Source: an uncultured Gammaproteobacteria bacterium (GTDB taxonomy: Bacteria > Patescibacteriota > Microgenomatia > 2-02-FULL-39-11). From it: DNA of 64,000 nt. Positions 5,706 to 63,314 of the stretch are shown here, one piece after another (the first letter of the stretch is position 1; each line of letters starts with the position of its first letter). The notes under the pieces are model-generated. The model saw only the letters and a program-made list of their open reading frames with translations. It did no database searches and was not told the DNA's origin. The position numbers and the translations under genes were made by a program. Location: positions 119,717-183,716 of the forward strand of contig CAZJBV010000001.1 of assembly GCA_964544585.1 (NCBI GenBank). Direction: 5' to 3'.

Positions 5706-8102
5706 CATTTCCAGTTGAATAAGTCTATTTAGTTCGACTGCGTATTCGAGGGGGAGTTGTTTGACGATGGGTTCTATAAATCCATTGACGACCATGGCTT
5801 CGGCGTCTGGTTTGTTGATACCGCGACTCATGAGGTAAAATAATTGGTCATCGCCAATCTTTGAGACTGTTGCTTCGTGTTCGATGCGACAATCATTGTG
5901 TTTTATATCCATTGTCGGATATGTATCTGATCTAGACTCATCATCTATCAACAAGGCGTCGCAGACGACTTTGGATTTGGCGCCAATTGCACTTTGAAAA
6001 ACCTGAAGAAGTCCTCTATATGATGTCCTTCCTCCACCGTGACTGACCGATTTGGAAGTAATCTTCGAAGAAGTATATGGAGCAAAGTGAATGGCTTTTC
6101 CGCCTGCATCCTGGTGCTGGCCGGGTCCGGCATAGGCAACTGATAGCACCTCTCCTCGAGCTCCTTTGCCCATTAAATAGACGCTGGGGTACTTCATAGT
6201 AAGCTTGGAATTGTGAACTAAAATACCATTTGCAATAAAATTCCCTTTATCAACTTCTATATCAAATGTCTCTTTTGATCCTTGGGGTACAATGCTATTT
6301 ACTCGGACAAACTGAATTGTTGAATCTTTTTTATCATCTCCAAAATATAAGAAATGATGTTTATAAACTTTTTCTTCTATACCAAGTGGTTTTCTCTCTC
6401 TCCTTGTCCAAAGCGAAATTTTCCTTGGAGAAAATTTATCGGTTATGTAACTTAGGTCTTTGACTTGTTGTAATAATTTCTTATTTACCGATGTTATAGA
6501 TATATTTCTATGATTATCACGTCTATATCCATCTGCATCGATATAACCCTCGATGAATGATGTTATTTGGGATTTTGGTAATGTGTAGATCCATTCAGGA
6601 ACTTCTTTGTCTTGCGCTTTTCCTTTGAATCCAAGCTTTACCAAAAAATCAACAAATTTTGTGGAAGCATAACGAACAATATTTCTTTTTATTTCGGGTT
6701 TAAGTCCAAAAAGCTTATTTATTGTTTCAATAACCTTTTTAAAGCTTTTATCACTTTGTGGAACAGCTATATATACTCTTGTTTTGTCCATACATCCATC
6801 ACCAATGTAAAAACCTAGAAGCCATAGCAATTCTTCGCTGCTTATTTCCGGATAGAAAAACTCCTTTTTACCACGTTTGGGGTTAAAATGTATGGGATAA
6901 TTTTTTCCTACCCATGGAAGTTTTCCTGATACTGCAATTAAATCTCCAACTTTTATTTTATCTAAAGGCATCCAATTGAAGTAAGAAATTTTTCCTTTCT
7001 TTTTTAAGACAAGAAAAGGATGATTTGCAGTTGCTTCTACTTCACGAAAATCTTCTGTTGTGATTTTGAAAACTGGAAGGGGGGGATTTTTAACTTTAGC
7101 TAACAATTTGGCTCTTGTTAAGGTAAATTCTGGAGTCATCGAGTATAAATAGTCGCCCGGTCGAATGTCTTTAATGGAAAGAACATGATCATTTGCTATT
7201 ATTTTCGCATCCTCTGTTAAACATCCTAAATTACCGTCGATCCACTCGCCAATTCCCTCTTCTTCGACTCGCATTCTTTTGGTGACGAGATTGTAAACAT
7301 TGGTCGACCAGTTTTGAATGGTGGTATATCTGACTCGTGCTCCTTTTTTGACAAAAATTTCAACAACAGCGGCGTGAAGTGAATCTGTGGTATAAACGGG
7401 AGCGGTGCATCCTTCGACATAATGAACGAAACTACCCTCGTCGGCGATTATTAATGTTCTTTCAAACTGACCCATATTGGCGGCGTTGATACGAAAATAA
7501 GCTTGTAGAGGAAGTTCCACATTGACACCTTTGGGAACGTATATAAATGATCCGCCACTCCAAGTAGCCGAATTTAAAGCGGCGAATTTATTGTCATGTG
7601 GTGGAATGATTGTGCTAAAATATTCTTTGACCAAATCCGGATACTCACGAAGTCCTGAGTCCATATCCAAGAATACTACTCCTTTTTTGCCGAGAGTTTT
7701 TTGGATGCTTTTATATACGACTTCTGACTCATATTGAGCTGAAACACCGCCAAGATATTTTTTTTCTGCTTCTGGAATGCCAATTCGGTCGTAGGTTCGG
7801 CGAATTTCAATAGGTAAATCCTTCCAACTTCTAGCTTTTTTTTCTGTGGGTTTTATATAGTAATAAATGTTGTCGAAATTGATTTTGGAAAGATCTCCGC
7901 CCCAAGCAGGGAGTGTTTTTTTATAAAAGATGTCTAGAGCATCATGGCGAAATTTTCTCATCCAATCCGGTTCATTTTTGTGGTATGAGATTTCATCTAT
8001 CACTAAATGAGAAAGTCCTTTTTTAGACTTGAATGAATAGCGTTCGGCCTCGTGAAAGCCTAGAGGGTAGGAATCGTTAATTGCTATTTGTGATGTGGGC
8101 AT
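5688..8102 (-). CDS. sufB: FeS cluster assembly protein SufB interrupted by an intein
   Basis: An 804-aa ORF. The exteins carry conserved SufB blocks (NWSTNVYNLVTKR, WIDGNLG | SKLTMKYPSVYLMG, GEVLSVAYAGPGQHQDAGGK). A 338-aa insertion begins with Cys and ends with HN, followed by Ser. Confidence 0.85.
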   Translation of the reverse strand: MPTSQIAINDSYPLGFHEAERYSFKSKKGLSHLVIDEISYHKNEPDWMRKFRHDALDIFYKKTLPAWGGDLSKINFDNIYYYIKPTEKKARSWKDLPIEIRRTYDRIGIPEAEKKYLGGVSAQYESEVVYKSIQKTLGKKGVVFLDMDSGLREYPDLVKEYFSTIIPPHDNKFAALNSATWSGGSFIYVPKGVNVELPLQAYFRINAANMGQFERTLIIADEGSFVHYVEGCTAPVYTTDSLHAAVVEIFVKKGARVRYTTIQNWSTNVYNLVTKRMRVEEEGIGEWIDGNLGCLTEDAKIIANDHVLSIKDIRPGDYLYSMTPEFTLTRAKLLAKVKNPPLPVFKITTEDFREVEATANHPFLVLKKKGKISYFNWMPLDKIKVGDLIAVSGKLPWVGKNYPIHFNPKRGKKEFFYPEISSEELLWLLGFYIGDGCMDKTRVYIAVPQSDKSFKKVIETINKLFGLKPEIKRNIVRYASTKFVDFLVKLGFKGKAQDKEVPEWIYTLPKSQITSFIEGYIDADGYRRDNHRNISITSVNKKLLQQVKDLSYITDKFSPRKISLWTRRERKPLGIEEKVYKHHFLYFGDDKKDSTIQFVRVNSIVPQGSKETFDIEVDKGNFIANGILVHNSKLTMKYPSVYLMGKGARGEVLSVAYAGPGQHQDAGGKAIHFAPYTSSKITSKSVSHGGGRTSYRGLLQVFQSAIGAKSKVVCDALLIDDESRSDTYPTMDIKHNDCRIEHEATVSKIGDDQLFYLMSRGINKPDAEAMVVNGFIEPIVKQLPLEYAVELNRLIQLEMEGSVG
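6210..7223 (-). mobile_element. SufB intein with LAGLIDADG homing endonuclease domain
   Basis: Starts at Cys (CLTEDAKII) and ends in VHN followed by the +1 Ser. Two LAGLIDADG-like blocks are present (LLWLLGFYIGDGC and FIEGYIDADGY). It is inserted at the conserved GNLG/S site of SufB. Confidence 0.8.
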
Positions 8103-9446: not shown

Positions 9447-9983
9447 TTAGAACTTAAATTTTTGCAGAGCGATTTTGAGCCAGGGAGTATATTGATCAGG
9501 TTTTGCCTCTATATTTTTTTTCAGATCTTCAATTTTTACTTGTTGTGTCTGGGTAATTTCAACAGGATTGGGATGAATGACTTTATCAGTTTTCCCAACT
9601 AAAACATGGCAGTATTCATTTTCGCAACTTTGGCCATATTTGGCGAAATAATAAAACGCACCTAAATCTTTAAATTCAACTTCGACGCCTAATTCTTCTA
9701 ACCCACGTCGTTTGGCTGCACTTGTGACTGTCTCGCCTGGAAGGACATGACTAACTACTGATGCATCCCAAAATTTATTCCACAATGATTTTTTATCGCT
9801 TCTTTTTTGTAGAAAAATAAAGTCTTCCTCTGTGTAAAGTAAGGCTAGAAAGGCCAAATGGGGAATACCTTTTTCGAAATGGCATTGCCTGCGGGTGGCA
9901 GTGCCAATTATTCTGCCAATAGTATCAGTCGTTTGAAGAAGTTGATTTTCTCTTTCTCCTCTTAAATCATGAATATTATCCAT
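9447..9983 (-). CDS. NUDIX-fold hydrolase, IDI-1 (isopentenyl-diphosphate isomerase)-like
   Basis: The HLAFLALLY...LQKRS...W...ETV..AA.RR..EELGV pattern resembles type 1 IDI and the NUDIX fold. Confidence 0.45.
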   Translation of the reverse strand: MDNIHDLRGERENQLLQTTDTIGRIIGTATRRQCHFEKGIPHLAFLALLYTEEDFIFLQKRSDKKSLWNKFWDASVVSHVLPGETVTSAAKRRGLEELGVEVEFKDLGAFYYFAKYGQSCENEYCHVLVGKTDKVIHPNPVEITQTQQVKIEDLKKNIEAKPDQYTPWLKIALQKFKF

Positions 9984-54240: not shown

Positions 54241-54726
54241 TTATTCTTTTTTGATCATAGTGTCAATTACATCGTAGATAGTATCCCAGTCAAAACCTCT
54301 TCTTGCCAGGGCTCCTTCCAGTTTTTGTTTTAGTTCGACTTTTGGGAGATTTTTATATAAATTCAGTTTTTTTTGGGCGACTGTGAGAGCTTTTTCAAAT
54401 TCGCTGCGATACAATTTATTTACAGAGAAAAACTCTTCAATATCGGCTGTCGCGATGCCTTTTTGGCGAAGTTCTTGTTTTAAAAGCATTTTTCCTTTGG
54501 GTCGGAAAGTGTCTCTTTGATCGACCCACCATGAAATAAAAGCTTTATCCGAAACTAATTTTCGCTCTTCCAAGTCCGTAATGACTTTGTCGATTGTTTT
54601 TTTGGCGATACCGCGTTTAAAACTATATTGAAAAAGTTTGCCATAGAGTTCTTTTTGGGAACGGGGGCGAATTGATAAAAGTTTTAGGGCTTTATCGATA
54701 AGAAGTTGGTATTGATCTTGATCCAT
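54241..54726 (-). CDS. recX: regulatory protein RecX
   Basis: A 161-aa helical-repeat protein immediately downstream of recA. Confidence 0.75.
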   Translation of the reverse strand: MDQDQYQLLIDKALKLLSIRPRSQKELYGKLFQYSFKRGIAKKTIDKVITDLEERKLVSDKAFISWWVDQRDTFRPKGKMLLKQELRQKGIATADIEEFFSVNKLYRSEFEKALTVAQKKLNLYKNLPKVELKQKLEGALARRGFDWDTIYDVIDTMIKKE

Positions 54727-55754
54727 TAATCAGATTTTTCTCTACCTGTTTTTTCTTTGGCGTGGCCGGTTTTATGTGCTTTATATATTTGTTCCAAAAT
54801 TTCGCGGGCTAATTTATGATTTTCTTTTAAGTACATTTTGGCTGCTTCTCTACCCTGACCGAGCATGGTCGTCCCATACTTTAGAAAAGCGCCGGATTTG
54901 GTGATAATGCTATATTCTAGGCCAACATCGATAAGACCCCCTTCTCTGGATATACCACTACTATCGATATCGAATTCTGCAATTTTGAAGGGAGGCGAAA
55001 CTTTGTTTTTGACTATTCTTACCCTATGACGTGTTCCTACCACCTGATCCCCATCTTTAAGAGTCTCTATTTTCCTGATATCGATCCTAATTGAGGCATA
55101 AAACTTGAGGGCCAAGCCTCCGGGAGTCGTTTCGGGATTGCCAAACATAATGCCTATTTTTTGGCGCAGCTGATTGGTAAAAAGACAAATTGTTTTGGAC
55201 TTGGAGATAACGCCTGTGAGTTTGCGAAGTGCTTGGGACATGAGGCGGGCCTGCATACCCATGACAGCATCACCCATCTCGCCTTCGATTTCGGCTCGCG
55301 GGACTAGAGCTGCGACTGAATCTATAACGACGACATCAACTCCCCCAGACCTTATTAATGTCTCTGCAATTTCTAGGGCTTGCTCGCCTGTGTCGGGCTG
55401 GGAAATAAGAAGATCTTCCAGTTTGACACCCAGTCTTTCTGCCCAGACGGGATCGAGGGCGTGCTCGGCATCAATAAAGGCGGCTACACCTCCGTGCTTT
55501 TGGGCTTCGGCAATAACAGTCAGAGCAAGGGTTGTTTTTCCGGATGCCTCGGGGCCGAATATTTCGGCGATTCGCCCTTTAGGTAAGCCTCCTATTCCTA
55601 GGGCAAGATCGACGGCAATAGAACCTGTGGGGATAACATCAATTGTTAGTTTTTGGGTTGACTCGCCTAATTTCATGATAGATCCTTTGCCGTACTGCTT
55701 TTCTATCTGCTCCATCGCCAGTTTAATTGCTTGGAATTTTTGGTCGTTTGTCAT
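54726..55754 (-). CDS. recA: recombinase RecA
   Basis: Has Walker [10 protein letters not shown], the L1/L2 loops, and highly conserved sequence throughout. Confidence 0.95.
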
Positions 55755-55808: not shown

Positions 55809-57410
55809 TTACATAGATAATGCTAGAATACAATAGTTCAAAACGGGGTGTAGGTCATCGGTAGACCGCGCGCATGGGGTGCGTGAAGTAGTGGGTTCAA
55901 TTCCCGCCACCCCGACAGATAGAGAGTCCGCGAAGCGGACGGAAGGTTGGGTCTGCGCGCCCCCACTCGCGCAGACTTCTGCAAAGCCCTGATTATATTC
56001 TGGGACAAGCCGCCGATCAGTTAAAAAGAAGTTCGAGCCGACAGTTTTTGCCATGATCGACAGATCATGGGATGTATTTTTTGCGCGCGCGATTTTTGCG
56101 CACGATAGTGCGCTACCAATGAAGTTTTTGAAAGGTTCGAGCCAACTCGAACCATTTTGTTTTATTTGTTCTAATTCTTCACTTATTTTTAATTTTTCTT
56201 CGAAAAATTCGTTCTTTTTTGTCTTGTAAATTTCGGGGTCAATAATTCCTTCTAAGTAACCATCTAAGAGTTTATTAAGTTTTACATCAATATCTTTTAA
56301 TTGCTGCTCTAATTTTAGGGTATTATCGTGAATGGATACAGTCTCTAATTTCTCATCCTCATCTAGCCATTTATACCAATTACTAGCCCATTTTTCTGGT
56401 AATGCAACATCATCAATGGCTTTTCTAAATTGTTGTTCAAGCTCTGGTTCTGAAATGTAAGGTTGATTGCAGGGTTTAATTTTTTTAGTACATCTATAGT
56501 AAACATATTCAACAGTTCTATTTGTTCCTTTGTAGAATTTTTTATGAGATTCAGCGGTAATAGTTGCTCCACACTCTCCACATCTCATTAAACCCATAAA
56601 GGGGAAATTATATCTTCTTTTTTTATGTCTATCCCTAAACTTTAATTCTTGCTGGACTTTTTGGAATAACTCTTTACTTATAATAGTTTTATGAGTACCC
56701 TCGTGATATTCTCCGTTGTAATACATTATGCCTATGTAAAATCTGTCTGATAAAATCTGGCGGATTTGATTTATATGTAGGGGTTTATCAATTTTTCTTT
56801 TAAGGTCAAACTTATATAGAAAGGTCGCAATATCAGTAAAAGTTTTGTCGCCTTCGCTAAATAATTCAAAAGCCTTCTTAATTGCTTTTAGTTTTTCTCC
56901 ATCTACATCTATCCCACGGGTTTTAGGATTATTAATATACCCATAAGGAGCTTTGCCAGGATAAACACCATTGCGGATTTTTTGTCTTAACCCACGTCTT
57001 ACATTTTCAGATAAATTATCCACATAATATTTACTCTGACCAAAGGCAATATTTAACATAAATTTTCCCTGGGGAGTATTTTCAAACCAAGAGGTCGGAA
57101 ATTTTAAGTCCTTCAATTTCCCGGTATCTAAAAGGTAAATTATTTTCCCACCATCTATTGAGTTACGAGCTAATCTATCAGGATGCCACGCAATAATCCC
57201 TTGTATATGACCTTTTTCTATTTTCTTCAAAACTTCCGCAAATTTTTCTCTGCCCGGAATCTTGGCAGTTTTTTCTTCTTCAACAAATTCGGTAATTTCC
57301 AAATGCTCTCTTTTAGCGTATTCTTTTAGCTCGGCAATTTGAGCAGAGATAGATAAAATCTGTTTATCTTTTTCTTCTCTGGATTTTCTACAGTAAGCAA
57401 TGTATTTCAT
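55809..57410 (-). CDS. large serine recombinase (resolvase domain + recombinase domain + zinc ribbon)
   Basis: An N-terminal YCRKSREE...SISAQ catalytic-serine motif, a recombinase domain, and CGECG...YYRC. The last ~90 codons read through IR1-L and antisense tRNA-Pro (GIEPTTS), so the true C-terminus is uncertain. Confidence 0.8.
   Translation of the reverse strand: MKYIAYCRKSREEKDKQILSISAQIAELKEYAKREHLEITEFVEEEKTAKIPGREKFAEVLKKIEKGHIQGIIAWHPDRLARNSIDGGKIIYLLDTGKLKDLKFPTSWFENTPQGKFMLNIAFGQSKYYVDNLSENVRRGLRQKIRNGVYPGKAPYGYINNPKTRGIDVDGEKLKAIKKAFELFSEGDKTFTDIATFLYKFDLKRKIDKPLHINQIRQILSDRFYIGIMYYNGEYHEGTHKTIISKELFQKVQQELKFRDRHKKRRYNFPFMGLMRCGECGATITAESHKKFYKGTNRTVEYVYYRCTKKIKPCNQPYISEPELEQQFRKAIDDVALPEKWASNWYKWLDEDEKLETVSIHDNTLKLEQQLKDIDVKLNKLLDGYLEGIIDPEIYKTKKNEFFEEKLKISEELEQIKQNGSSWLEPFKNFIGSALSCAKIARAKNTSHDLSIMAKTVGSNFFLTDRRLVPEYNQGFAEVCASGGAQTQPSVRFADSLSVGVAGIEPTTSRTPCARSTDDLHPVLNYCILALSM
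55844..55915 (+). tRNA. tRNA-Pro (anticodon GGG)
   Basis: Cloverleaf: acceptor cggggtg/caccccg, D stem ggtc/gacc, anticodon stem cgcgc/gcgtg with loop aTGGGgt, T arm gtggg-ttcaatt-cccgc, discriminator A. Confidence 0.75.
55913..56015. repeat. IR1-L: 103-bp perfect inverted copy of 57519-57621
   Basis: Exact reverse complement of IR1-R. It starts 3 nt inside the 3' end of tRNA-Pro. It contains the internal hairpin gtctgcgcg-agtggggg-cgcgcagac. Confidence 0.9.
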
Positions 57411-57518
57411 TTTTTATTTTCCTCTTATAAGAAGAGTTCTTTTGCGAGCGAAGCGAGCAGTCCCGATGATATATCGGGACAAAATTTTTGCGTTCCTCGT
57501 TTTTTGTTCTTTTTAACC

Positions 57519-57700
57519 GGCGGCTTGTCCCAGAATATAATCAGGGCTTTGCAGAAGTCTGCGCGAGTGGGGGCGCGCAGACCCAACCTTCCGTCCGCTT
57601 CGCGGACTCTCTATCTGTCGACCTTTTTAAAAAAATCCGAACTCGCTTTAAGTCGAATCGGTAGGCGCGCTACGCGCGCCATCTTATCCGCTCGGCCTTC
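57519..57700. repeat. IR1-R (57519-57621) fused to IR2-L (57615-57700): the junction segment of two inverted-repeat-bounded modules
   Basis: The left 103 nt are the exact reverse complement of 55913-56015. The right 86 nt are the exact reverse complement of 62493-62578. Confidence 0.9.
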
Positions 57701-57850
57701 GGCCGAAGCTCTTAAACTGTCGGCCGAACCAGTCCGTAGGACTGCAAAAAACGCAAAAATTTTAAAGAACTTTTGTTATTTCTGTTTGCTTATTCCAATT
57801 TGGCATATTACATTTTGGAATATATCATATACTGTATCTTATTTTCAACT

Positions 57851-58078
57851 ATGAAAAAATCTATTTTTTCGGAGGATCATAAATATTTAGTAAGTCAACT
57901 TAAAAAAGCCAGAGAAGAAGCATCTCTTGAGCAAGAAGAGGTGGCTAAGTTACTTGGAAAAACTCAATCTTATATTTCAAAAATAGAGTCAGGTCAAAGA
58001 AGAATAGACATCGTTCAATTAAAACAATTTGCGAAGTTATACAAGAAAGAGGTTAATTTCTTTATTAAAAAGGCATGA
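57851..58078 (+). CDS. XRE-family HTH protein, probable R-M controller (C) protein
   Basis: A 75-aa Cro/C1-type HTH (QEEVAKLLGKTQSYISKIESGQR). Its stop overlaps the downstream ORF start (ATGA), as in C-R operons. Confidence 0.6.
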   Translation: MKKSIFSEDHKYLVSQLKKAREEASLEQEEVAKLLGKTQSYISKIESGQRRIDIVQLKQFAKLYKKEVNFFIKKA

Positions 58079-58920
58079 GAAGAAAAGAAATAATTAAATT
58101 TATCACCGGAATGATCGAAGAAGGTGGATTAACCTTTACTGATTATGCGACTAAACTCGAGGAGATAGTTAATAAACTATCGTTGGAAGATATAAAAATA
58201 AGCCTACTTGAATGTGGCGTAATCCCAGAGTCTTTTAATCACGATTCAACGGAAGAAAAATTATATTCAAAATATTCAGATATGTTACTTGCAAGAGCGT
58301 TCACATTCATCGGAATAGATTCCAAAGTTATTAAAGAAAGAGCAGATGCGGCAGATGTTGAGGGTAAAACTAAAGACTACACTCTTGTTGCAGATGGAAA
58401 GGTCTTTCGGTTAAGCCGAACTGCTAAGAATCAGAAGGATTTTAAGGTCGAAGCGTTAGATAAATGGAGGAACGGTAAAGATTTCGCTTGTTTGGTATCT
58501 CCTCTTTATCAATACCCTAAAAGTAAAAGTCAAATTTATAGACAAGCTATTGGTAGAAATGTTACCTTATTTTCCTATATCCACCTATATTTTATTCTCT
58601 CTCAAAATAAGTCGAACCAGTGCAACTATAAACCCTTATGGTTGGTTAGTAAGAAATTAAAAGGTGCAAAAGGAGCAGTAACTTATTGGAAGGGAATTGA
58701 TAAGACGCTTTGCAAAATCCTAAATAAAAGTCTAAAAGAGCTAGAAGCGATTAAAAAACTTGAGCTTGATTTACTAAAAGAATCTGCAAAAGAAGAAGTG
58801 GCATATATTGAAGGTAAAATTGAAACAATAAAATCATTATCACATACCGAGGCTATTGAGAGATTAATAAAAGCAGAAAAACTTGATCAGAAAATTAATC
58901 AAATAACAAGAATGGCTTGA
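58075..58920 (+). CDS. putative Type II restriction endonuclease (by context)
   Basis: A 281-aa protein with no family signature recognised. It is translationally coupled to the C-protein and convergent with the methyltransferase. There is a possible PD-(D/E)xK arrangement (GID ... DVEGK). Confidence 0.35.
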   Translation: MRRKEIIKFITGMIEEGGLTFTDYATKLEEIVNKLSLEDIKISLLECGVIPESFNHDSTEEKLYSKYSDMLLARAFTFIGIDSKVIKERADAADVEGKTKDYTLVADGKVFRLSRTAKNQKDFKVEALDKWRNGKDFACLVSPLYQYPKSKSQIYRQAIGRNVTLFSYIHLYFILSQNKSNQCNYKPLWLVSKKLKGAKGAVTYWKGIDKTLCKILNKSLKELEAIKKLELDLLKESAKEEVAYIEGKIETIKSLSHTEAIERLIKAEKLDQKINQITRMA

Positions 58921-60495
58921 TTAAAATAGAGGTTCCTGATTTACTTTACCATTTTTTGGATTAGAAACATAAGCTCCATTTAATCTTTTTTTGGCAATCT
59001 CGCAAAATTCACTGGAAATTTCAAAACCAATATATTTTCTATTAAGATTCTTTGCCGCAATAGCGGTCGAACCGGAACCAAGAAATGGATCCATAATAAC
59101 CTGACCATCTTTTGTTACAAGCCTAATTAAATATTCTAATAACTCCACTGGCTTCTGTGCTTCGTGTAGTCCTCCTTCGCCTTTGCCAAAACCAAACTGT
59201 AGAATATTTGTCGGAGATTTTCCGTTGATTAAAGACGCATCTATATTCATGGCTCCTACTTTATTTTTTAGTACATTATCTGTAATTGTAATTTCATAGG
59301 GTTTAAATAACCAGGCAATCGGTTCATATTTTGGCGCGAGATTACCAACCTTCCAACCTTCCCATTCCTTTGCTTCTTCTACCAATCCTCTTTTCTTAAT
59401 AATTTCACTTATATATTGAGCTCTGTGATGAGCATTTGGTTTTTCCCAAGCTAGGATATCTCTTAACAGAAACCCACTATCTTCAAGAGCTATAATTGCC
59501 CTGTGCAGAGTTCTTCTTGCGCCGAAAATAAATATACTTGCGCCTTCTTTTAAAGAAGGGTAGAGCTTTTTTGCCCACGAATAACACCATTCTTGGTATT
59601 CTTTTGGGATATTTCTGTCTGCGCTTGACCACCCATTAATAGGTTTTCCTCTTCTCCGAAATGCCTTTTTGCCTATCTGTGCAGGTGATTGTCCTAAAAG
59701 GGCGGAGTTTGTGTTAGCGTGTAAAACATCCCATTCATCCAGTGATATTCCATAAGGAATATCCGACAGAACTAGATCTATTGAATCCGGCTTCACCTTA
59801 TCTAGAAGTTCTATAGCATCACCACAAAGAATTTGATTTTCTTCAATATATTCGGATGGACTAACTTTATTTTCAGTTTCTGGAGGTAAATTAGTTTTGG
59901 TATTGAGATTTTTAATAATGTCAATAACAATTCCTTGCACAATTAAATTTTCTGGATCAACAAAAAATGGATCTAAACTTGAATTTGCTGGCTGAAGTCT
60001 TATTTTTCCTCTTTCCCTATATAATTTTTTCAAAGTTACTTCTGAATTGTTTATTAATGCAACTACTTTTTGTCCATTATCGGCTGTAGGTTGGCTTTTT
60101 ACTATTACTATATCTCCATGATCAATATTTTCATCAATCATACTTTGTCCAGCAACACGTAGGCCGTAGAAATCACCATTTTTCGGTATTTTTGATTTTG
60201 GTACTGCTATAAACTCTTTATCTTCAATAGCTAAAATTGGTTGTCCCGCAGCAATAGTGCCAAGCAGAGGAATCTGTACCATTTGCATCTCATCATACAC
60301 ATCAATTGCCCGAGGCTGATTTTCTTCTTTTCTTAACAAACCCAAATCTTCTAATGCCTTGACGTGATGATGGGCTGTTGAAACAGAGGATAGCCTTAAA
60401 TGCTTCTTTATTTCTTCCAAAGAAGGAGCATAACCATGTTTAGTTTTGTAGGATTTTATATATTCCAGAACTTGCTTTTGTCTTTTTGTAATCAT
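58921..60495 (-). CDS. LexA repressor (HTH + S24 peptidase) fused to a beta-class N4/N6 DNA amino-methyltransferase
   Basis: The N-terminal ~205 aa have the LexA architecture: a wHTH domain, the AAG cleavage site (TIAAGQP), catalytic Ser (AGQSM) and Lys (TLKKL). The C-terminal ~320 aa have motif IV SDIPYG preceding motif I DPFLGSGST (PF01555-like). It is a single open frame with no internal start. Confidence 0.75.
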   Translation of the reverse strand: MITKRQKQVLEYIKSYKTKHGYAPSLEEIKKHLRLSSVSTAHHHVKALEDLGLLRKEENQPRAIDVYDEMQMVQIPLLGTIAAGQPILAIEDKEFIAVPKSKIPKNGDFYGLRVAGQSMIDENIDHGDIVIVKSQPTADNGQKVVALINNSEVTLKKLYRERGKIRLQPANSSLDPFFVDPENLIVQGIVIDIIKNLNTKTNLPPETENKVSPSEYIEENQILCGDAIELLDKVKPDSIDLVLSDIPYGISLDEWDVLHANTNSALLGQSPAQIGKKAFRRRGKPINGWSSADRNIPKEYQEWCYSWAKKLYPSLKEGASIFIFGARRTLHRAIIALEDSGFLLRDILAWEKPNAHHRAQYISEIIKKRGLVEEAKEWEGWKVGNLAPKYEPIAWLFKPYEITITDNVLKNKVGAMNIDASLINGKSPTNILQFGFGKGEGGLHEAQKPVELLEYLIRLVTKDGQVIMDPFLGSGSTAIAAKNLNRKYIGFEISSEFCEIAKKRLNGAYVSNPKNGKVNQEPLF

Positions 60496-60602
60496 AGATA
60501 TTGACAGCTCAAGAATAATTCTATACAATTAGGTTAATCGAAAATGAATCGAAAGTCAAGTGGTTAAAATTTAACCTGAAGATTAAAGGGGGTGATGAAA
60601 AT

Positions 60603-60815
60603 ATGACTCATCGTAAAGGATCAAAACCAAATCATAAAGGAGAGCAGTGGACAGAATCACAAGTTGAGCGTCTTGAGAATTTGGCTAAAAGGAATACACC
60701 TACCCCTTTAATTGCAGATGCATTAGGTAGAACGGAGGGGGCAATAAGATCTAAAACATCGGAAGAGAATATTTCTCTTAAGCCAATCAATAAATCTCCC
60801 TATAGTAGAAGGTAA
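60603..60815 (+). CDS. small GcrA/Myb-like HTH protein
   Basis: W-T-E..V..L..L......P..IA..LGRT..A...K resembles the GcrA N-terminal/SANT-like DNA-binding fold. A good SD (aagggggtga) lies upstream. Confidence 0.35.
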   Translation: MTHRKGSKPNHKGEQWTESQVERLENLAKRNTPTPLIADALGRTEGAIRSKTSEENISLKPINKSPYSRR

Positions 60816-60836
60816 AATAGAATTGATAAAGCAATT

Positions 60837-61814
60837 ATGGACTTATTTTCGAAAGTCAAACCATCACTTTTTATAGCCCGTCCTTGGGATACATCCTTTG
60901 CTGAACTTTATGAACCCATTAAGAAAAACCTCGTTGGTAAATGGGAAATTAATGACGGCCCCCTTATAGTTAAAGAAGATGAGGCTCAAGCAGAAAGAGA
61001 AATGTTCATAGGTAGAAACAAGCAACTGTACGAACAGATTGTTTTAGGGATAAAGAAGTCAGATGTCTTTATTGCCGATGTAACAAATGCTAATGCAAAC
61101 GTTATGATGGAATTAGGAATTGCAATACAACTAAACAAAAATGTCATTATAGTGACAGGGCAAGATAGGAATAGACTCCCGTTTGATATACAGGGTTTTA
61201 AAGCAGAAAAATATGATAATATAAATGACCTCGGTGAAAAAATTGGAAATGGACTTTCTTTATATTTATCAATAAAAGAACAGAATTTTGATAAGCCCTT
61301 TCCAGAAAACCACATACCTATATCTGATGGGAAATTAACGGGACTTAGGGCAATAATGCCGATTCAACTTTCCAAACCTATTAAAAATTTAAAGCTGAGA
61401 ATCGAATACAAATTTGTAAATAAATCTGATGATCAGGATTGGCTAGGAATACATTTGCGAGCATCTCCCTCTATTCAACCTTCTGAATTAGTGTATGTTA
61501 GATCAAATGGTAGCTTAGAGATTGTAACGCTCCCTACCAGACCTGCACCCTCGGTAGGAGTAGATAAAGAAAATATAGATAACAGGTTAGAAGATGGATA
61601 CACTAGATTAGAACTAATTCTTGATGGCAATAAATTACTGGCCGCTACCTCAACTAAAGAGTTATATGACGATTTAATTCAAATAGAATCGTTCGGCAGT
61701 ATATTTCTTCAGGCAAATGGACATAGCCAAGATCCACAAAAACGAGAGAGTCTTGAGATTGATTTTAGAAATTTTGAAATTATTAATATAGATACGACAA
61801 GTCCTAACTCGTAA
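60837..61814 (+). CDS. nucleoside 2-deoxyribosyltransferase-like (NDT/TIR-like Rossmann) N-domain protein with unknown beta-rich C-domain
   Basis: The N-terminus (LFIARPW ... SDVFIADVTNANANVMMELGIAIQLNKNVIIV) resembles the PF05014/PF15891 fold. The C-terminal 180 aa are unassigned. Confidence 0.45.
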   Translation: MDLFSKVKPSLFIARPWDTSFAELYEPIKKNLVGKWEINDGPLIVKEDEAQAEREMFIGRNKQLYEQIVLGIKKSDVFIADVTNANANVMMELGIAIQLNKNVIIVTGQDRNRLPFDIQGFKAEKYDNINDLGEKIGNGLSLYLSIKEQNFDKPFPENHIPISDGKLTGLRAIMPIQLSKPIKNLKLRIEYKFVNKSDDQDWLGIHLRASPSIQPSELVYVRSNGSLEIVTLPTRPAPSVGVDKENIDNRLEDGYTRLELILDGNKLLAATSTKELYDDLIQIESFGSIFLQANGHSQDPQKRESLEIDFRNFEIINIDTTSPNS

Positions 61815-62492
61815 ATTATATTTTTATTTTTTAACCTTTGAAGCGGCTCCGCCGCCCCCGCCCTGTTGGGGATAATTTCCCTTAAAGGAGGGCTGCCGTC
61901 AGAAAAACTTTCAAGTAGGGAGCTAAAAGAAAATCTGGGATAGGCAGCCCGACAAACGCGAGAGCCGAGAGGAATATTTTCGGATTATAGAAAAACTCGG
62001 CTCGAGCCATCGGAATCAGTAGCGTAGCGAGCTCTCGAGAGCGAGCAAGCGGTGGGAAGCAGAAGGGGTACAAATAATAAAGGCGGGGGCGAAAAGCGGA
62101 ATACCCCCGCAACGGCAGGAGATACTAAAACAGAAAAAGGGGAGGCGAGGAGCGGCCGAAGGCTATTTTGTTCTTCGCTCCTCGCCGTGGTAGAGACTGT
62201 AAAGCGAAAATAGAAAACCCCTAATATGGGAAAGGCTCCCCCTAGGGAGCCCTCTCGCCCAAAAGCGGGGGTGCCGCTTCCTTTTAATTGGGTGGGAGGG
62301 ATGATGGGAATTTGTACCAGCGTATAGATATATGTTTTTAAAGGGAGCGTTAAGTTAGTTTTCCGCGGATGGGTGGGTTGGGCCAAGGAAAACATTTGTG
62401 TTTTTGTTACTTTACCTGTCCGCGTCAGCGGACTATAATAAATAAAAATCGCGCGCATTTCTGTCTTTGCAAAAAATACTAGAGCGAGGCCA
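61815..62492 (+). other. GC- and purine-rich non-coding segment with dense local hairpins (candidate structured RNA)
   Basis: No credible ORF. GC is far above background. There are multiple perfect hairpins (gaggcgaggagcg/cgctcctcgcc, ggctccccctagggagcc, gcgggggc...gcccccgc). Confidence 0.35.
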
Positions 62493-62578
62493 AAGGCCGA
62501 GCGGATAAGATGGCGCGCGTAGCGCGCCTACCGATTCGACTTAAAGCGAGTTCGGATTTTTTTAAAAAGGTCGACAGA
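62493..62578. repeat. IR2-R: 86-bp perfect inverted copy of 57615-57700
   Basis: Exact reverse complement. Contains the hairpin ggcgcgc-tac-gcgcgcc. Confidence 0.9.
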
Positions 62579-62651
62579 ATACGAATTCACAGAAGAAGAG
62601 TCACGGAGGCTCTGCGCGGGTGGGGGCGGGGGGGATCCTTCAAGAATTGAA

Positions 62652-63314
62652 TCAATTGCAGTTCCAATAACAAAAGGTAATTTTGCCAGTAATACTTTCT
62701 CTGGGAATAAATCCTATAAATCTAGAATCGGCACTATTGGGTCTATTGTCTCCTAAGACAAAATAATGACCGGAAGGAATAGTAACTTCATTATCCTCAG
62801 GAAGAAAAGTTCCCCCCATTGTCGTTATATTTGGGGGGAGGTATTTACTATCATCTAATTTTTTACCATTTATGTATACTTGACCACCTTGAATCATCAC
62901 TTTTTCACCTGGTAATCCTATGACTCTTTTGAAATAGTCGATATCTTTATTATCAGGTGCCTGAAATACAACAACATCATATCGATTGATCGTATCACTA
63001 GAGTAGACAACTTTAGCCACATAATATTGACCATCTTTATAAGAAGGATTCATCGCGATTCCCTTTATTTGAATTGGTTTAATAAAGAAGAGATATGTTA
63101 CAACACCAAATGACAAGGCTAATAATAATGCTAAGGGGAGAGTAAGAAGTATTTTAAGCCATTTGGGCCAGAAGGTAAATCGCCACATGATAATTATGCC
63201 AATTATAAATAGTAGGTTCCATATAATTCCTAGAACTAGTAATACAATTGTGATGATTGTAATCGTAGTTGGAGAAATACGGGCTTTGGATTGGAATTTA
63301 CTTGGCATAAACAA
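62652..63314 (-). CDS. lepB: signal peptidase I
   Basis: An S26 family protein with the SM(N)PS-like box (GIAMNPS), KR box (FKRVIGLPGE) and GDNR..S.DSR box. Confidence 0.85.
   Translation of the reverse strand: MFMPSKFQSKARISPTTITIITIVLLVLGIIWNLLFIIGIIIMWRFTFWPKWLKILLTLPLALLLALSFGVVTYLFFIKPIQIKGIAMNPSYKDGQYYVAKVVYSSDTINRYDVVVFQAPDNKDIDYFKRVIGLPGEKVMIQGGQVYINGKKLDDSKYLPPNITTMGGTFLPEDNEVTIPSGHYFVLGDNRPNSADSRFIGFIPRESITGKITFCYWNCN

Follow-up and report, generated by a model that had tools for sequence, protein, structure and literature searches.

What does a GC-rich, hairpin-dense tract encode when it lies between two protein genes of a patescibacterial genome and appears to hold no gene itself? 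The tract (61815 to 62650, + strand) belongs to a 204,959-bp contig of a metagenome-assembled genome (MAG) of Candidatus Gottesmanbacteria (Patescibacteria), from which a stretch of 64,000 nucleotides, hereafter the window, was analyzed. The original prediction, made from the letters of this window, had described one non-coding tract of ~680 bp inside a genomic island and had favored a large structured RNA as its content. Judged from sequence comparison, the tract very probably holds a functional structured RNA, and positions 61838 to ~62340 of the + strand are probably the gene of a ~500-nt structured non-coding RNA whose family lies outside Rfam 15. Homologous loci hold the pairing through compensatory changes, which bears out the favored idea. 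The structured RNA thus stands, but the single tract turned out to be composite: it comprises the ~500-nt RNA, a hairpin motif, and a promoter with the 5′ third of a small unit.

Composition and coding potential of the tract

The segment 61820 to 62668 has a GC content of ~0.50 and is the longest run of the window in which 150-nt windows reach at least 0.50. With a mean of 0.39 for the window and 0.26–0.36 for the sequence directly on either side, the tract is GC-rich as first described, although the background is 39% and not the ~35% assumed at the time. Since a GC content of 0.50 is also attained in several coding regions, the composition by itself is unexceptional and proves little. The purine skew was recovered as well (purine fraction of 0.58). 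At least eight helices can be placed in the tract, and its 826-nt sequence folds better than dinucleotide-shuffled controls (z = −3.9, + strand), in agreement with the local hairpins noted originally.

The open reading frames (ORFs) of the tract, of 25 to 157 aa, are short or of low complexity and rich in Pro, Arg, and Leu; none is credible. The 157-aa ORF (61985 to 62458, minus strand) has no Pfam match, and the longest stop-free stretch shifts in frame and strand among the homologues. These data uphold the absence of a plausible ORF and give no support to a protein gene disrupted by frameshifts, the explanation that had been named as the one to displace an RNA.

Homologous loci in groundwater metagenomes

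The translation of the spurious 157-aa ORF was used to query a protein database, in the expectation that similar false ORFs had been called in homologous tracts. Four "proteins" were retrieved, whose contigs carry the tract at 72–79% DNA identity; gene callers had placed minus-strand ORFs of 133–165 aa in four homologues. A first alignment revealed invariant blocks, and one block of 21 nt (GAWTACCCCCGCAACGGCAGG) led to 22 further metagenome loci, many of which derive from 0.1-µm fractions of Hainich groundwater. The contigs or loci compared with the window are labeled L001 to L032. More than 20 independent metagenome contigs (about two dozen, from groundwater) carry the conserved tract, at 57–79% identity. 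The conserved core spans 61838 to ~62340, and the ~480 nt located between the recombination joints described below are conserved best. A covariance model (R1) built on the 5′ half of the RNA gave a single match per locus, with 190–307 bits in full-length copies; the single match in the window covers 61838 to 62119 (294 bits).

The tract was unmatched by blastn against phages and plasmids, three conserved, invariant blocks were not found in IMG/VR viral contigs, and exact look-ups of lepB, the recombinase, and the spurious ORF returned no record. Scanning genome contigs with a 22-mer from hairpin H5 gave a sole match, by chance, in a Chloroflexia MAG of 70% GC. A full-text literature search with sequence words of the invariant blocks gave no match, and topic searches yielded one relevant paper, on group I introns of Patescibacteria (PMC13011429). 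Many contigs of independent assemblies end inside the RNA or within ~100 nt of it (L010, L014, L019, L024, L026, L027, L029), a pattern that structural polymorphism or repeats at the locus could produce. Two Logan contigs from different runs (L001, L002) both break at 61893 to 61896.

Architecture of the RNA

The RNA is laid out as a closing helix P1 around domain I (P2, H1, H2, H3) and domain II (P3, H5, H6a, H6). Its fold is nested, with the two domains closed by P1, and P2 and P3 would complete a three-way junction. A G-rich tail and then a U-rich stretch (near 62334 to 62339) follow on the 3′ side.

61794 to 61822, + strand: weak promoter-like site ACGACA-17-TATATT, 16 nt upstream of the 5′ strand of P1, not conserved
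61838 to ~62340, + strand: candidate large structured RNA of ~500 nt (3′ end approximate), defined by homology, the covariance-model match, and covariation
61838 to 61846, + strand: 5′ strand of P1, UUGAAGCGG, with its partner at 62274 to 62282, ~430 nt away
61855 to 61862, + strand: 5′ strand of P2, CCCCCGCC, with the proposed partner GGCGGGGG at 62082 to 62089
61890 to 61950, + strand: H1, GGGCUGCC (61890 to 61897) with GGCAGCCC (61943 to 61950)
61962 to 62003, + strand: H2, GAGCCGAG with CUCGGCUC, 5/8 pairs changed on both sides
62020 to 62052, + strand: H3, outer UAGC/GCGG, inner stem 62027 to 62034 / 62039 to 62046
62102 to 62110, + strand: 5′ strand of P3, UACCCCCGC, with the proposed partner GCGGGGGUG at 62265 to 62273
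62144 to 62186, + strand: H5, GGCGAGGAGCG with CGCUCCUCGCC, inner GCC-GAA-GGC hairpin
62218 to 62251, + strand: H6a (CCCCU/AUGGG) and H6 (GGCUCC-CCCUAG-GGAGCC)

Many compensatory changes were found in P1, H1, H2, H3, H5, and H6 across 15–23 homologues. P1 covaries as AA/UU, UG/CA, and UC/GA, with four pairs changed on both sides. The H1 stem occurs in four variants (GGGCUGCC, GGGCAGCACC, GGGCUCCC, and GGGCGCGC), each with a matching partner. Eight of the nine inner pairs of H3 changed on both sides, and its UCGA loop is conserved on stems of unrelated sequence, with a tandem G·A in the window copy. H5 is an optional module that is missing as a whole from six homologues, and four of its pairs changed on both sides. 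In H6 all cells are paired (100%), and five of its six pairs show double changes; H6a, 71% paired, is weakly supported. Extra hairpins are inserted in L004, L007, L028, and L030.

P2 is almost invariant (97% paired, no double change) and both strands of P3 are invariant (100% paired), so that covariation neither supports nor refutes P3. These invariant G5/C5 helices may join P1 in a three-way junction, which remains a proposal because they never vary. The invariant joining strands CGAGCCAUCGGAAU, AACGGCAGG, and GAGACUGUA may form a tertiary core together with P2, P3, and P1. Other pairings were tried and discarded. A G-quadruplex in the 3′ tail (GGGUGGGAGGGAUGAUGGG) would use a fourth G-run that is not conserved, a local helix GGCGAG/CUCGCC around H6 is not present in window-type sequences, and the helix CCGA/UCGG proposed by RNAalifold competes with H1.

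Covariation against controls and orientation of the RNA

The contribution of covariation was evaluated in three alignments. The 5′ half (36 pairs, 87% of cells paired, 16 pairs changed on both sides) gave a covariation score of 0.263, as compared with a shuffle mean of 0.10 and 0.09 for the best slid partner. The 3′ half (38 pairs, 95% paired, 12 changed on both sides) gave 0.140, against 0.044 for both the shuffle mean and the best slid partner. For the full nested model in 15 sequences (79 pairs, 88% paired, 29 changed on both sides) the score was 0.216, with a shuffle mean of 0.087 and a best slid partner of 0.075. None of 500 shuffles reached the observed score in any of the three alignments. 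Since the homologues are interrelated, the shuffle controls overstate the significance; the slid-partner control is fairer, and was passed. The comparative alignment of homologous loci, proposed with the original prediction as a way to check it, thus revealed compensatory base changes. Substitutions are paired across helices and are not concentrated at third codon positions.

The outer pairs of H3 are U·G in 17–19 of 21 sequences. Near-invariant U·G pairs occur in H3 and P3, and C-G alternates with U-G in H1. On the opposite strand such U·G pairs would be A·C mismatches, which indicates that the functional strand is the + strand. Compensatory changes beyond the controls are therefore accompanied by a G·U strand asymmetry, the combination generally expected of a structured RNA.

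Search for known RNA families

At the gathering score, a cmscan with Rfam 15 of the window and 20 homologous loci detected tRNAs only. With permissive filters nothing relevant appeared at E ≤ 10 in 61700 to 62750 or at E ≤ 1 in eight loci; this includes the group I intron model RF00028, without match at E ≤ 10 in the window and at E ≤ 1 in eight homologues. The covariance models of GOLLD, ROOL, OLE, and raiA were unmatched in the window and the homologues tested. Neither the window nor 25 loci yielded a tmRNA with Aragorn, and no tmRNA family of Rfam matched. As no Rfam 15 family matches, the RNA is not GOLLD, ROOL, HEARO, OLE, RNase P RNA, tmRNA, or a detectable group I or II intron. The covariance-model scan suggested at the outset thus assigned no family to the window or its homologues, and membership of GOLLD, ROOL, or HEARO, to which the prediction had alluded, found no match to their models.

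Candidates were also considered one by one. Words resembling the R (GUAGAGACUGUA) and S (GAUAUCGG) elements of group I introns are conserved, but by inspection they are not mutually complementary as P7 requires; flanking exons and a match to RF00028 are likewise lacking. No split tRNA flanks the RNA according to Aragorn and Rfam, and the flanks are intergenic and differ between loci. RNase P RNA was rejected because no model matched, the GGAAAGUCC / ACAGAA...GCUUA motif is absent, and the helices are nested in an order without P4. tmRNA was rejected without a match by Aragorn or Rfam, despite tmRNA-like words (GAUUCGAC, GUUCGAAU) in the small unit. For HEARO, the omega RNA of IscB, there is no model match, and the neighbors are the NDT/TIR-like gene and lepB, with no IscB/HNH ORF.

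Units downstream of the RNA

On the + strand, the RNA is followed by a hairpin with a G-rich loop (62358 to 62393) and then by a small unit that includes a conserved promoter (62411 to 62578).

62358 to 62393, + strand: separate hairpin with a G-rich loop (GCGGAUGGGUGGGUUGGGCCAAG), in 10 loci
62411 to 62439, + strand: conserved promoter TTTACC-17-TATAAT, with a hairpin in the spacer
62447 to 62578, + strand: small conserved unit of ~130 nt, AAAAUCGCGCGCAUU ... UAGAGCGAGGCC ... CGAGUUCGGAU ... GGUCGACAGA
62488 to 62578, + strand: inverted repeat IR2-R, the 3′ 91 nt of the small unit and the C half of an attachment (att) unit, with the core CGACAGA at 62572 to 62578
62609 to 62633, + strand: degenerate copy of the G-rich-loop hairpin, intact in IR1 (UCUGCGCG-AGUGGGGG-CGCGCAGA) and downstream of the small unit in L006
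L004 1 to 500, L011 5960 to 6151, L012 1350 to 1850, L015 850 to 1300: region replacing the small unit 3′ of the RNA

The stem of the G-rich-loop hairpin covaries (GUUUUC/GAAAAC, GUGUCC/GGACAC, UGCCC/GGGCA), and its inner pair is C-G, G-C, or U-A. The promoter matches the consensus at 10 of 12 positions and is kept in 10 loci. The small unit is probably a small RNA, its ends being deduced from the sequence; it has no match in Rfam or by Aragorn. A consensus fold of this unit was uninformative, since a filter on its end motif left just four sequences. IR2-R was found at the edge of the tract as predicted, with 99% complementarity to 57614 to 57704, and the motif reported just beyond it as resembling IR1 (62611 to 62628) is 94% identical to 57558 to 57575 within that repeat.

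In a second group of loci (L004, L011, L012, L015, L018, L019, L030) a different and longer conserved non-coding region stands in place of the small unit. It exceeds 500 nt and contains GC-rich hairpins together with pyrimidine-rich and G/U-rich blocks. In L004, 313 nt of this region form the outer inverted repeat.

A proposed serine-recombinase element around the RNA

The gene order around the tract was established with Pfam and Aragorn.

54726 to 55754, minus strand: recA
55844 to 55916, + strand: tRNA-Pro
55809 to 57410, minus strand: large serine recombinase, 533 aa
55913 to 56015 / 57518 to 57620: inverted repeat IR1
57614 to 57704 / 62488 to 62578: inverted repeat IR2, 99% complementary
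57773 to 58078, + strand: helix-turn-helix protein
58075 to 58920, + strand: HindIII-type endonuclease
58921 to 60528, minus strand: methylase fused to LexA and S24 domains
60603 to 60815, + strand: 70-aa ORF
60837 to 61814, + strand: NDT/TIR-like protein, 325 aa
62652 to 63314, minus strand: lepB

The recombinase carries Resolvase, Recombinase, and Zn-ribbon domains, and its ORF runs antisense through IR1-L and the entire tRNA-Pro gene. Three junctions have the core CGACAGA in common. At J1 (tRNA/B*), tRNA-Pro...CCCCGACAGA is joined to TAGAGAG; at J2 (C/B*; minus strand, 57518 to 57704), ...GGTCGACAGA is joined to TAGAGAG; and at J3 (C/D), ...GGTCGACAGA is joined to ATACGAA. From these sequences around the common core, J2 is the reciprocal hybrid of the left side of J3 and the right side of J1. 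The locus therefore combines the domains of a large serine recombinase with reciprocal hybrid junctions around a short core, as such elements do.

An unrelated element in L004 contains perfect inverted-repeat pairs of 313 nt (197 to 509 / 7428 to 7740) and 75 nt (7737 to 7811 / 9599 to 9673), which abut with a 4-nt overlap; the 3′ end of its recombinase gene enters tRNA-Leu, and the RNA adjoins the outer repeat. In both of these unrelated elements two inverted-repeat pairs abut around the recombinase, with one outer arm at the 3′ end of a tRNA. Part of the C-terminal coding region of the L004 recombinase, which ends within tRNA-Leu, is duplicated and inverted upstream of its own promoter. In L015 the RNA, C, B*, and the recombinase are contiguous, so that the arc with the RNA stands in the opposite orientation. 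These arrangements, in which IR1, IR2, and the IR1-like motif of the window fit as att junctions, are most simply read as those of a circle that carries its att unit twice, in inverted orientation, and that entered the 3′ end of a tRNA gene through one of the two copies. In the window such an element would extend over about 55913 to 62578 (~6.7 kb), be integrated at the 3′ end of tRNA-Pro, and contain the RNA. A recurrent assembly outcome of mixed isomers could also produce these arrangements. No replication initiator, rolling-circle Rep, or relaxase is encoded by the element according to Pfam.

The restriction-modification (R-M)/NDT cargo cassette (57751 to 61863) is present at 94% identity in L031 and L032, with no full-length RNA behind it. 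The homology stops at 61863, inside the 5′ end of the RNA, past the 5′ strand of P1 and the C-rich strand; the RNA gene thus has its initial ~26 nt in common with the cassette. The locus would double as a recombination joint, with the 5′ ~26 nt of the RNA common with the cassette on one side and IR2-R as half of an att unit on the other. The placement of the tract inside an island holds for the reconstructed element, but the cargo cassette ends at 61863 and the RNA is also found at loci with no recombinase in reach. Similarly, a cluster of recombination sites, originally put forward as an alternative, explains no more than the initial ~26 nt, IR2-R, and the motif located past this repeat.

In L031 (4138 to 4209) and L032 (4321 to 4392) the cassette is followed by a 72-nt miniature with P1 (AAGCGG/CCGCUU), the C-rich strand, and an H1-like hairpin; this miniature was either left by a deletion or represents a minimal relative of the RNA. 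In five homologues with a mismatched P1 (L007, L011, L015, L025, L028), a 5′ strand of one type stands with a 3′ strand of another, a combination that an exchange of RNA 5′ ends by recombination at the C-rich strand would produce. Within the cassette, the methylase-LexA-S24 fusion, which includes a self-cleaving peptidase domain, also occurs with an ApaLI-like endonuclease in L031 (1208 to 2794) and L032, and its domains suggest an SOS-linked R-M switch. The last gene of the cassette (60837 to 61814) encodes a protein with weak matches to nucleoside 2-deoxyribosyltransferase (NDT) and to CAP12/Pycsar TIR-like domains, a possible defense effector.

Neighbors of the RNA at other loci

A serine recombinase is in reach in the window, L004, and L015 only. 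Its absence elsewhere is weakly shown, because most loci extend far on one side only; L014 and L023, which have an upstream M23-peptidase gene in common, nevertheless jointly cover 8 kb upstream and 7 kb downstream of the RNA with no recombinase. The neighbors vary by locus and include ArsR, toxin-like and defense-like proteins, Fic, and tRNA clusters, which indicates that the RNA is not the leader of a particular gene. In L008 (3720 to 3920), L013, and L017 the 3′ half of the RNA is swapped for an unrelated hairpin-rich sequence beside an IS200/IS605 Y1 transposase, which suggests that an insertion disrupted the RNA gene.

A palindrome of ~23 bp (GGCCAAAATGGTGGAAATTGGCC), in either orientation, lies just 5′ of the RNA at several loci (L004 ~1165 to 1200, L007, L011, L012, L013, L015, L017, L028, and others; L023 ~1690). 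The form GGCCAA-N11-TTGGCC was found upstream of the RNA in these other loci, and the window lacks it. The palindrome may serve for protein binding or for recombination.

A guide function for the recombinase was also considered. The RNA has seven 8-mers in common with the three junctions, against 3.2 expected; all are AT-rich, and this is the level of chance. Complementarity to the att junctions being no greater than chance, there is no sign of an RNA-guided recombinase. A guide of the IS110 bridge-RNA type was rejected on the same ground, and the variable parts of the RNA are paired stems.

Evaluation of alternative explanations

Several observations weigh against a conserved RNA with the fold proposed here. 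P1 is mismatched in the five homologues named above, P2 and P3 are without variation, and a local hairpin (GGCGGGGG...CCCCCGC) pairs equally well. The regions 5′ of the RNA have no promoter in common among the homologues, and P1 is thus preceded by no conserved promoter, while the small unit on the 3′ side has a very well conserved one. The homologues form a narrow, mutually related clade. G·T pairs occur in single-stranded DNA too, which leaves room for structure at the DNA level. No conserved protein partner was seen, and the replacement of the 3′ half in L008, L013, and L017 means that the RNA may be dispensable.

The tract could act as single-stranded or duplex DNA of the ~6.7-kb element, as an origin of replication or transfer or as a packaging site. 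It lies within the element as reconstructed for both the window and L004, is dense in strand-specific hairpins that would tolerate G·T wobbles as DNA, and many contigs break there; in addition, the element encodes no replication initiator. We consider this improbable, because the same sequence stands at the recombinase-free loci L014 and L023, no rolling-circle Rep or relaxase is present to make single strands, no iterons or DnaA-box-like repeats were found, and nested helices that covary over a long range, such as P1 over ~430 nt, typify RNAs rather than origins. A pre-primer similar to ColE1 RNA II, that is, a long folded transcript that hybridizes persistently through its G/C runs and primes replication of the excised circle, would suit the ~500-nt size, the invariant G5 and C5 runs, the absence of a Rep protein, and a reconstructed circle with inverted repeats like those of an amplifiable plasmid. 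This resemblance is very improbable as an explanation, since the intramolecular helices fully account for the G and C runs, a strong conserved 5′ promoter is lacking, neither an antisense RNA-I-like unit nor an antisense promoter pattern was observed, and the RNA is present at chromosomal-looking loci.

A highly divergent member of a known family (RNase P RNA, tmRNA, group I or II intron, GOLLD, ROOL, OLE, or HEARO) would explain the conserved R-like and S-like words as well as the tmRNA-like words of the small unit. Group I introns that escape standard tools are indeed often present in Patescibacteria (PMC13011429). We give this explanation very little credence: neither the window nor 20 homologues matched an Rfam model of these families, and permissive filters (window and eight loci) changed nothing, Aragorn detected no tmRNA, the flanks differ between loci and provide no host-gene exons, the two intron-like words do not look complementary enough for P7, the P4 motif GGAAAGUCC is missing and the helix order is unlike that of RNase P, and no IscB gene is adjacent. 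Scarcely credible is a decayed protein gene, or a mere cluster of recombination sites or element scars without a function of its own. It would accommodate the false minus-strand ORFs of 133–165 aa in four homologues and the recombination-related sequences (the first 26 nt, IR2-R, and the motif at 62611). However, Pfam gave no match, frame and strand are not conserved, modules of non-triplet length are gained or lost, substitutions are paired across helices and not at third codon positions, and the ~480-nt core between the joints is the part conserved best. A stand-alone structured RNA thus remains the preferred reading. A bolder version of it is doubtful: the RNA, perhaps with the G-loop hairpin and the small unit, would have a function within a new type of serine-recombinase episome or integrative element that lacks Rep and bears two inverted att units, and could provide an RNA-based means of replication or maintenance or act as a new large ribozyme carried between Patescibacteria.

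Comparison with known systems

To our knowledge, bacterial RNAs of more than ~400 nt with intricate conserved folds are rare, with only about ten classes described. A new class would offer a concrete target for experiments; the model proposed here gives its strand, places its ends approximately, and has covariation behind more than 25 of its pairs. The Patescibacteria that carry it have tiny genomes with few regulators and are known to retain self-splicing introns. That the RNA overlaps the joints of a serine-recombinase element is also of interest for the movement of islands in these uncultured bacteria.

In the yeast 2-micron circle, which recombines through Flp, two inverted recombination units separate two arcs; the reconstructed circle would be similar, and both orientations of one arc are present here (the window and L004 versus L015). 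The present element differs by its serine rather than tyrosine recombinase and by its integration at a tRNA gene, and its free circle is a reconstruction. As at tRNA and tmRNA integration sites, the ends of RNA genes coincide with island joints (the 5′ 26 nt of the RNA and the 3′ 91 nt of the small unit), but the large serine recombinase needs no long homology and the repeats are inverted, not direct. HEARO and omega RNAs are also structured RNAs within mobile elements; the present RNA has no adjacent IscB/HNH, no model match, and no guide-like complementarity to the junctions.

OLE RNA (~600 nt) belongs to Bacillota extremophiles. The present RNA is unlike it in having no model match, no oapA-like neighbors, and a host of an unrelated lineage; like OLE, it is large and stand-alone, with highly conserved joining strands, and OLE is chromosomal in many genomes. 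GOLLD and ROOL are large ornate bacterial RNAs often located in prophages beside tRNA genes. The present RNA differs from them by the lack of a model match, by its patescibacterial host, by a serine-recombinase element in place of phages, and by invariant blocks that are unmatched in IMG/VR viral contigs. It resembles them in its several hundred nucleotides, its many hairpins arranged around long-range helices, its optional modules, and its location in or beside mobile DNA and tRNA genes. Most well-understood large bacterial RNAs are ribozymes or cores of ribonucleoproteins. By analogy with other large ornate bacterial RNAs, the present one may be a ribozyme or a scaffold, and our best guess is that it most likely acts in trans as a stable RNA or ribonucleoprotein core, comparable to GOLLD, ROOL, and OLE.

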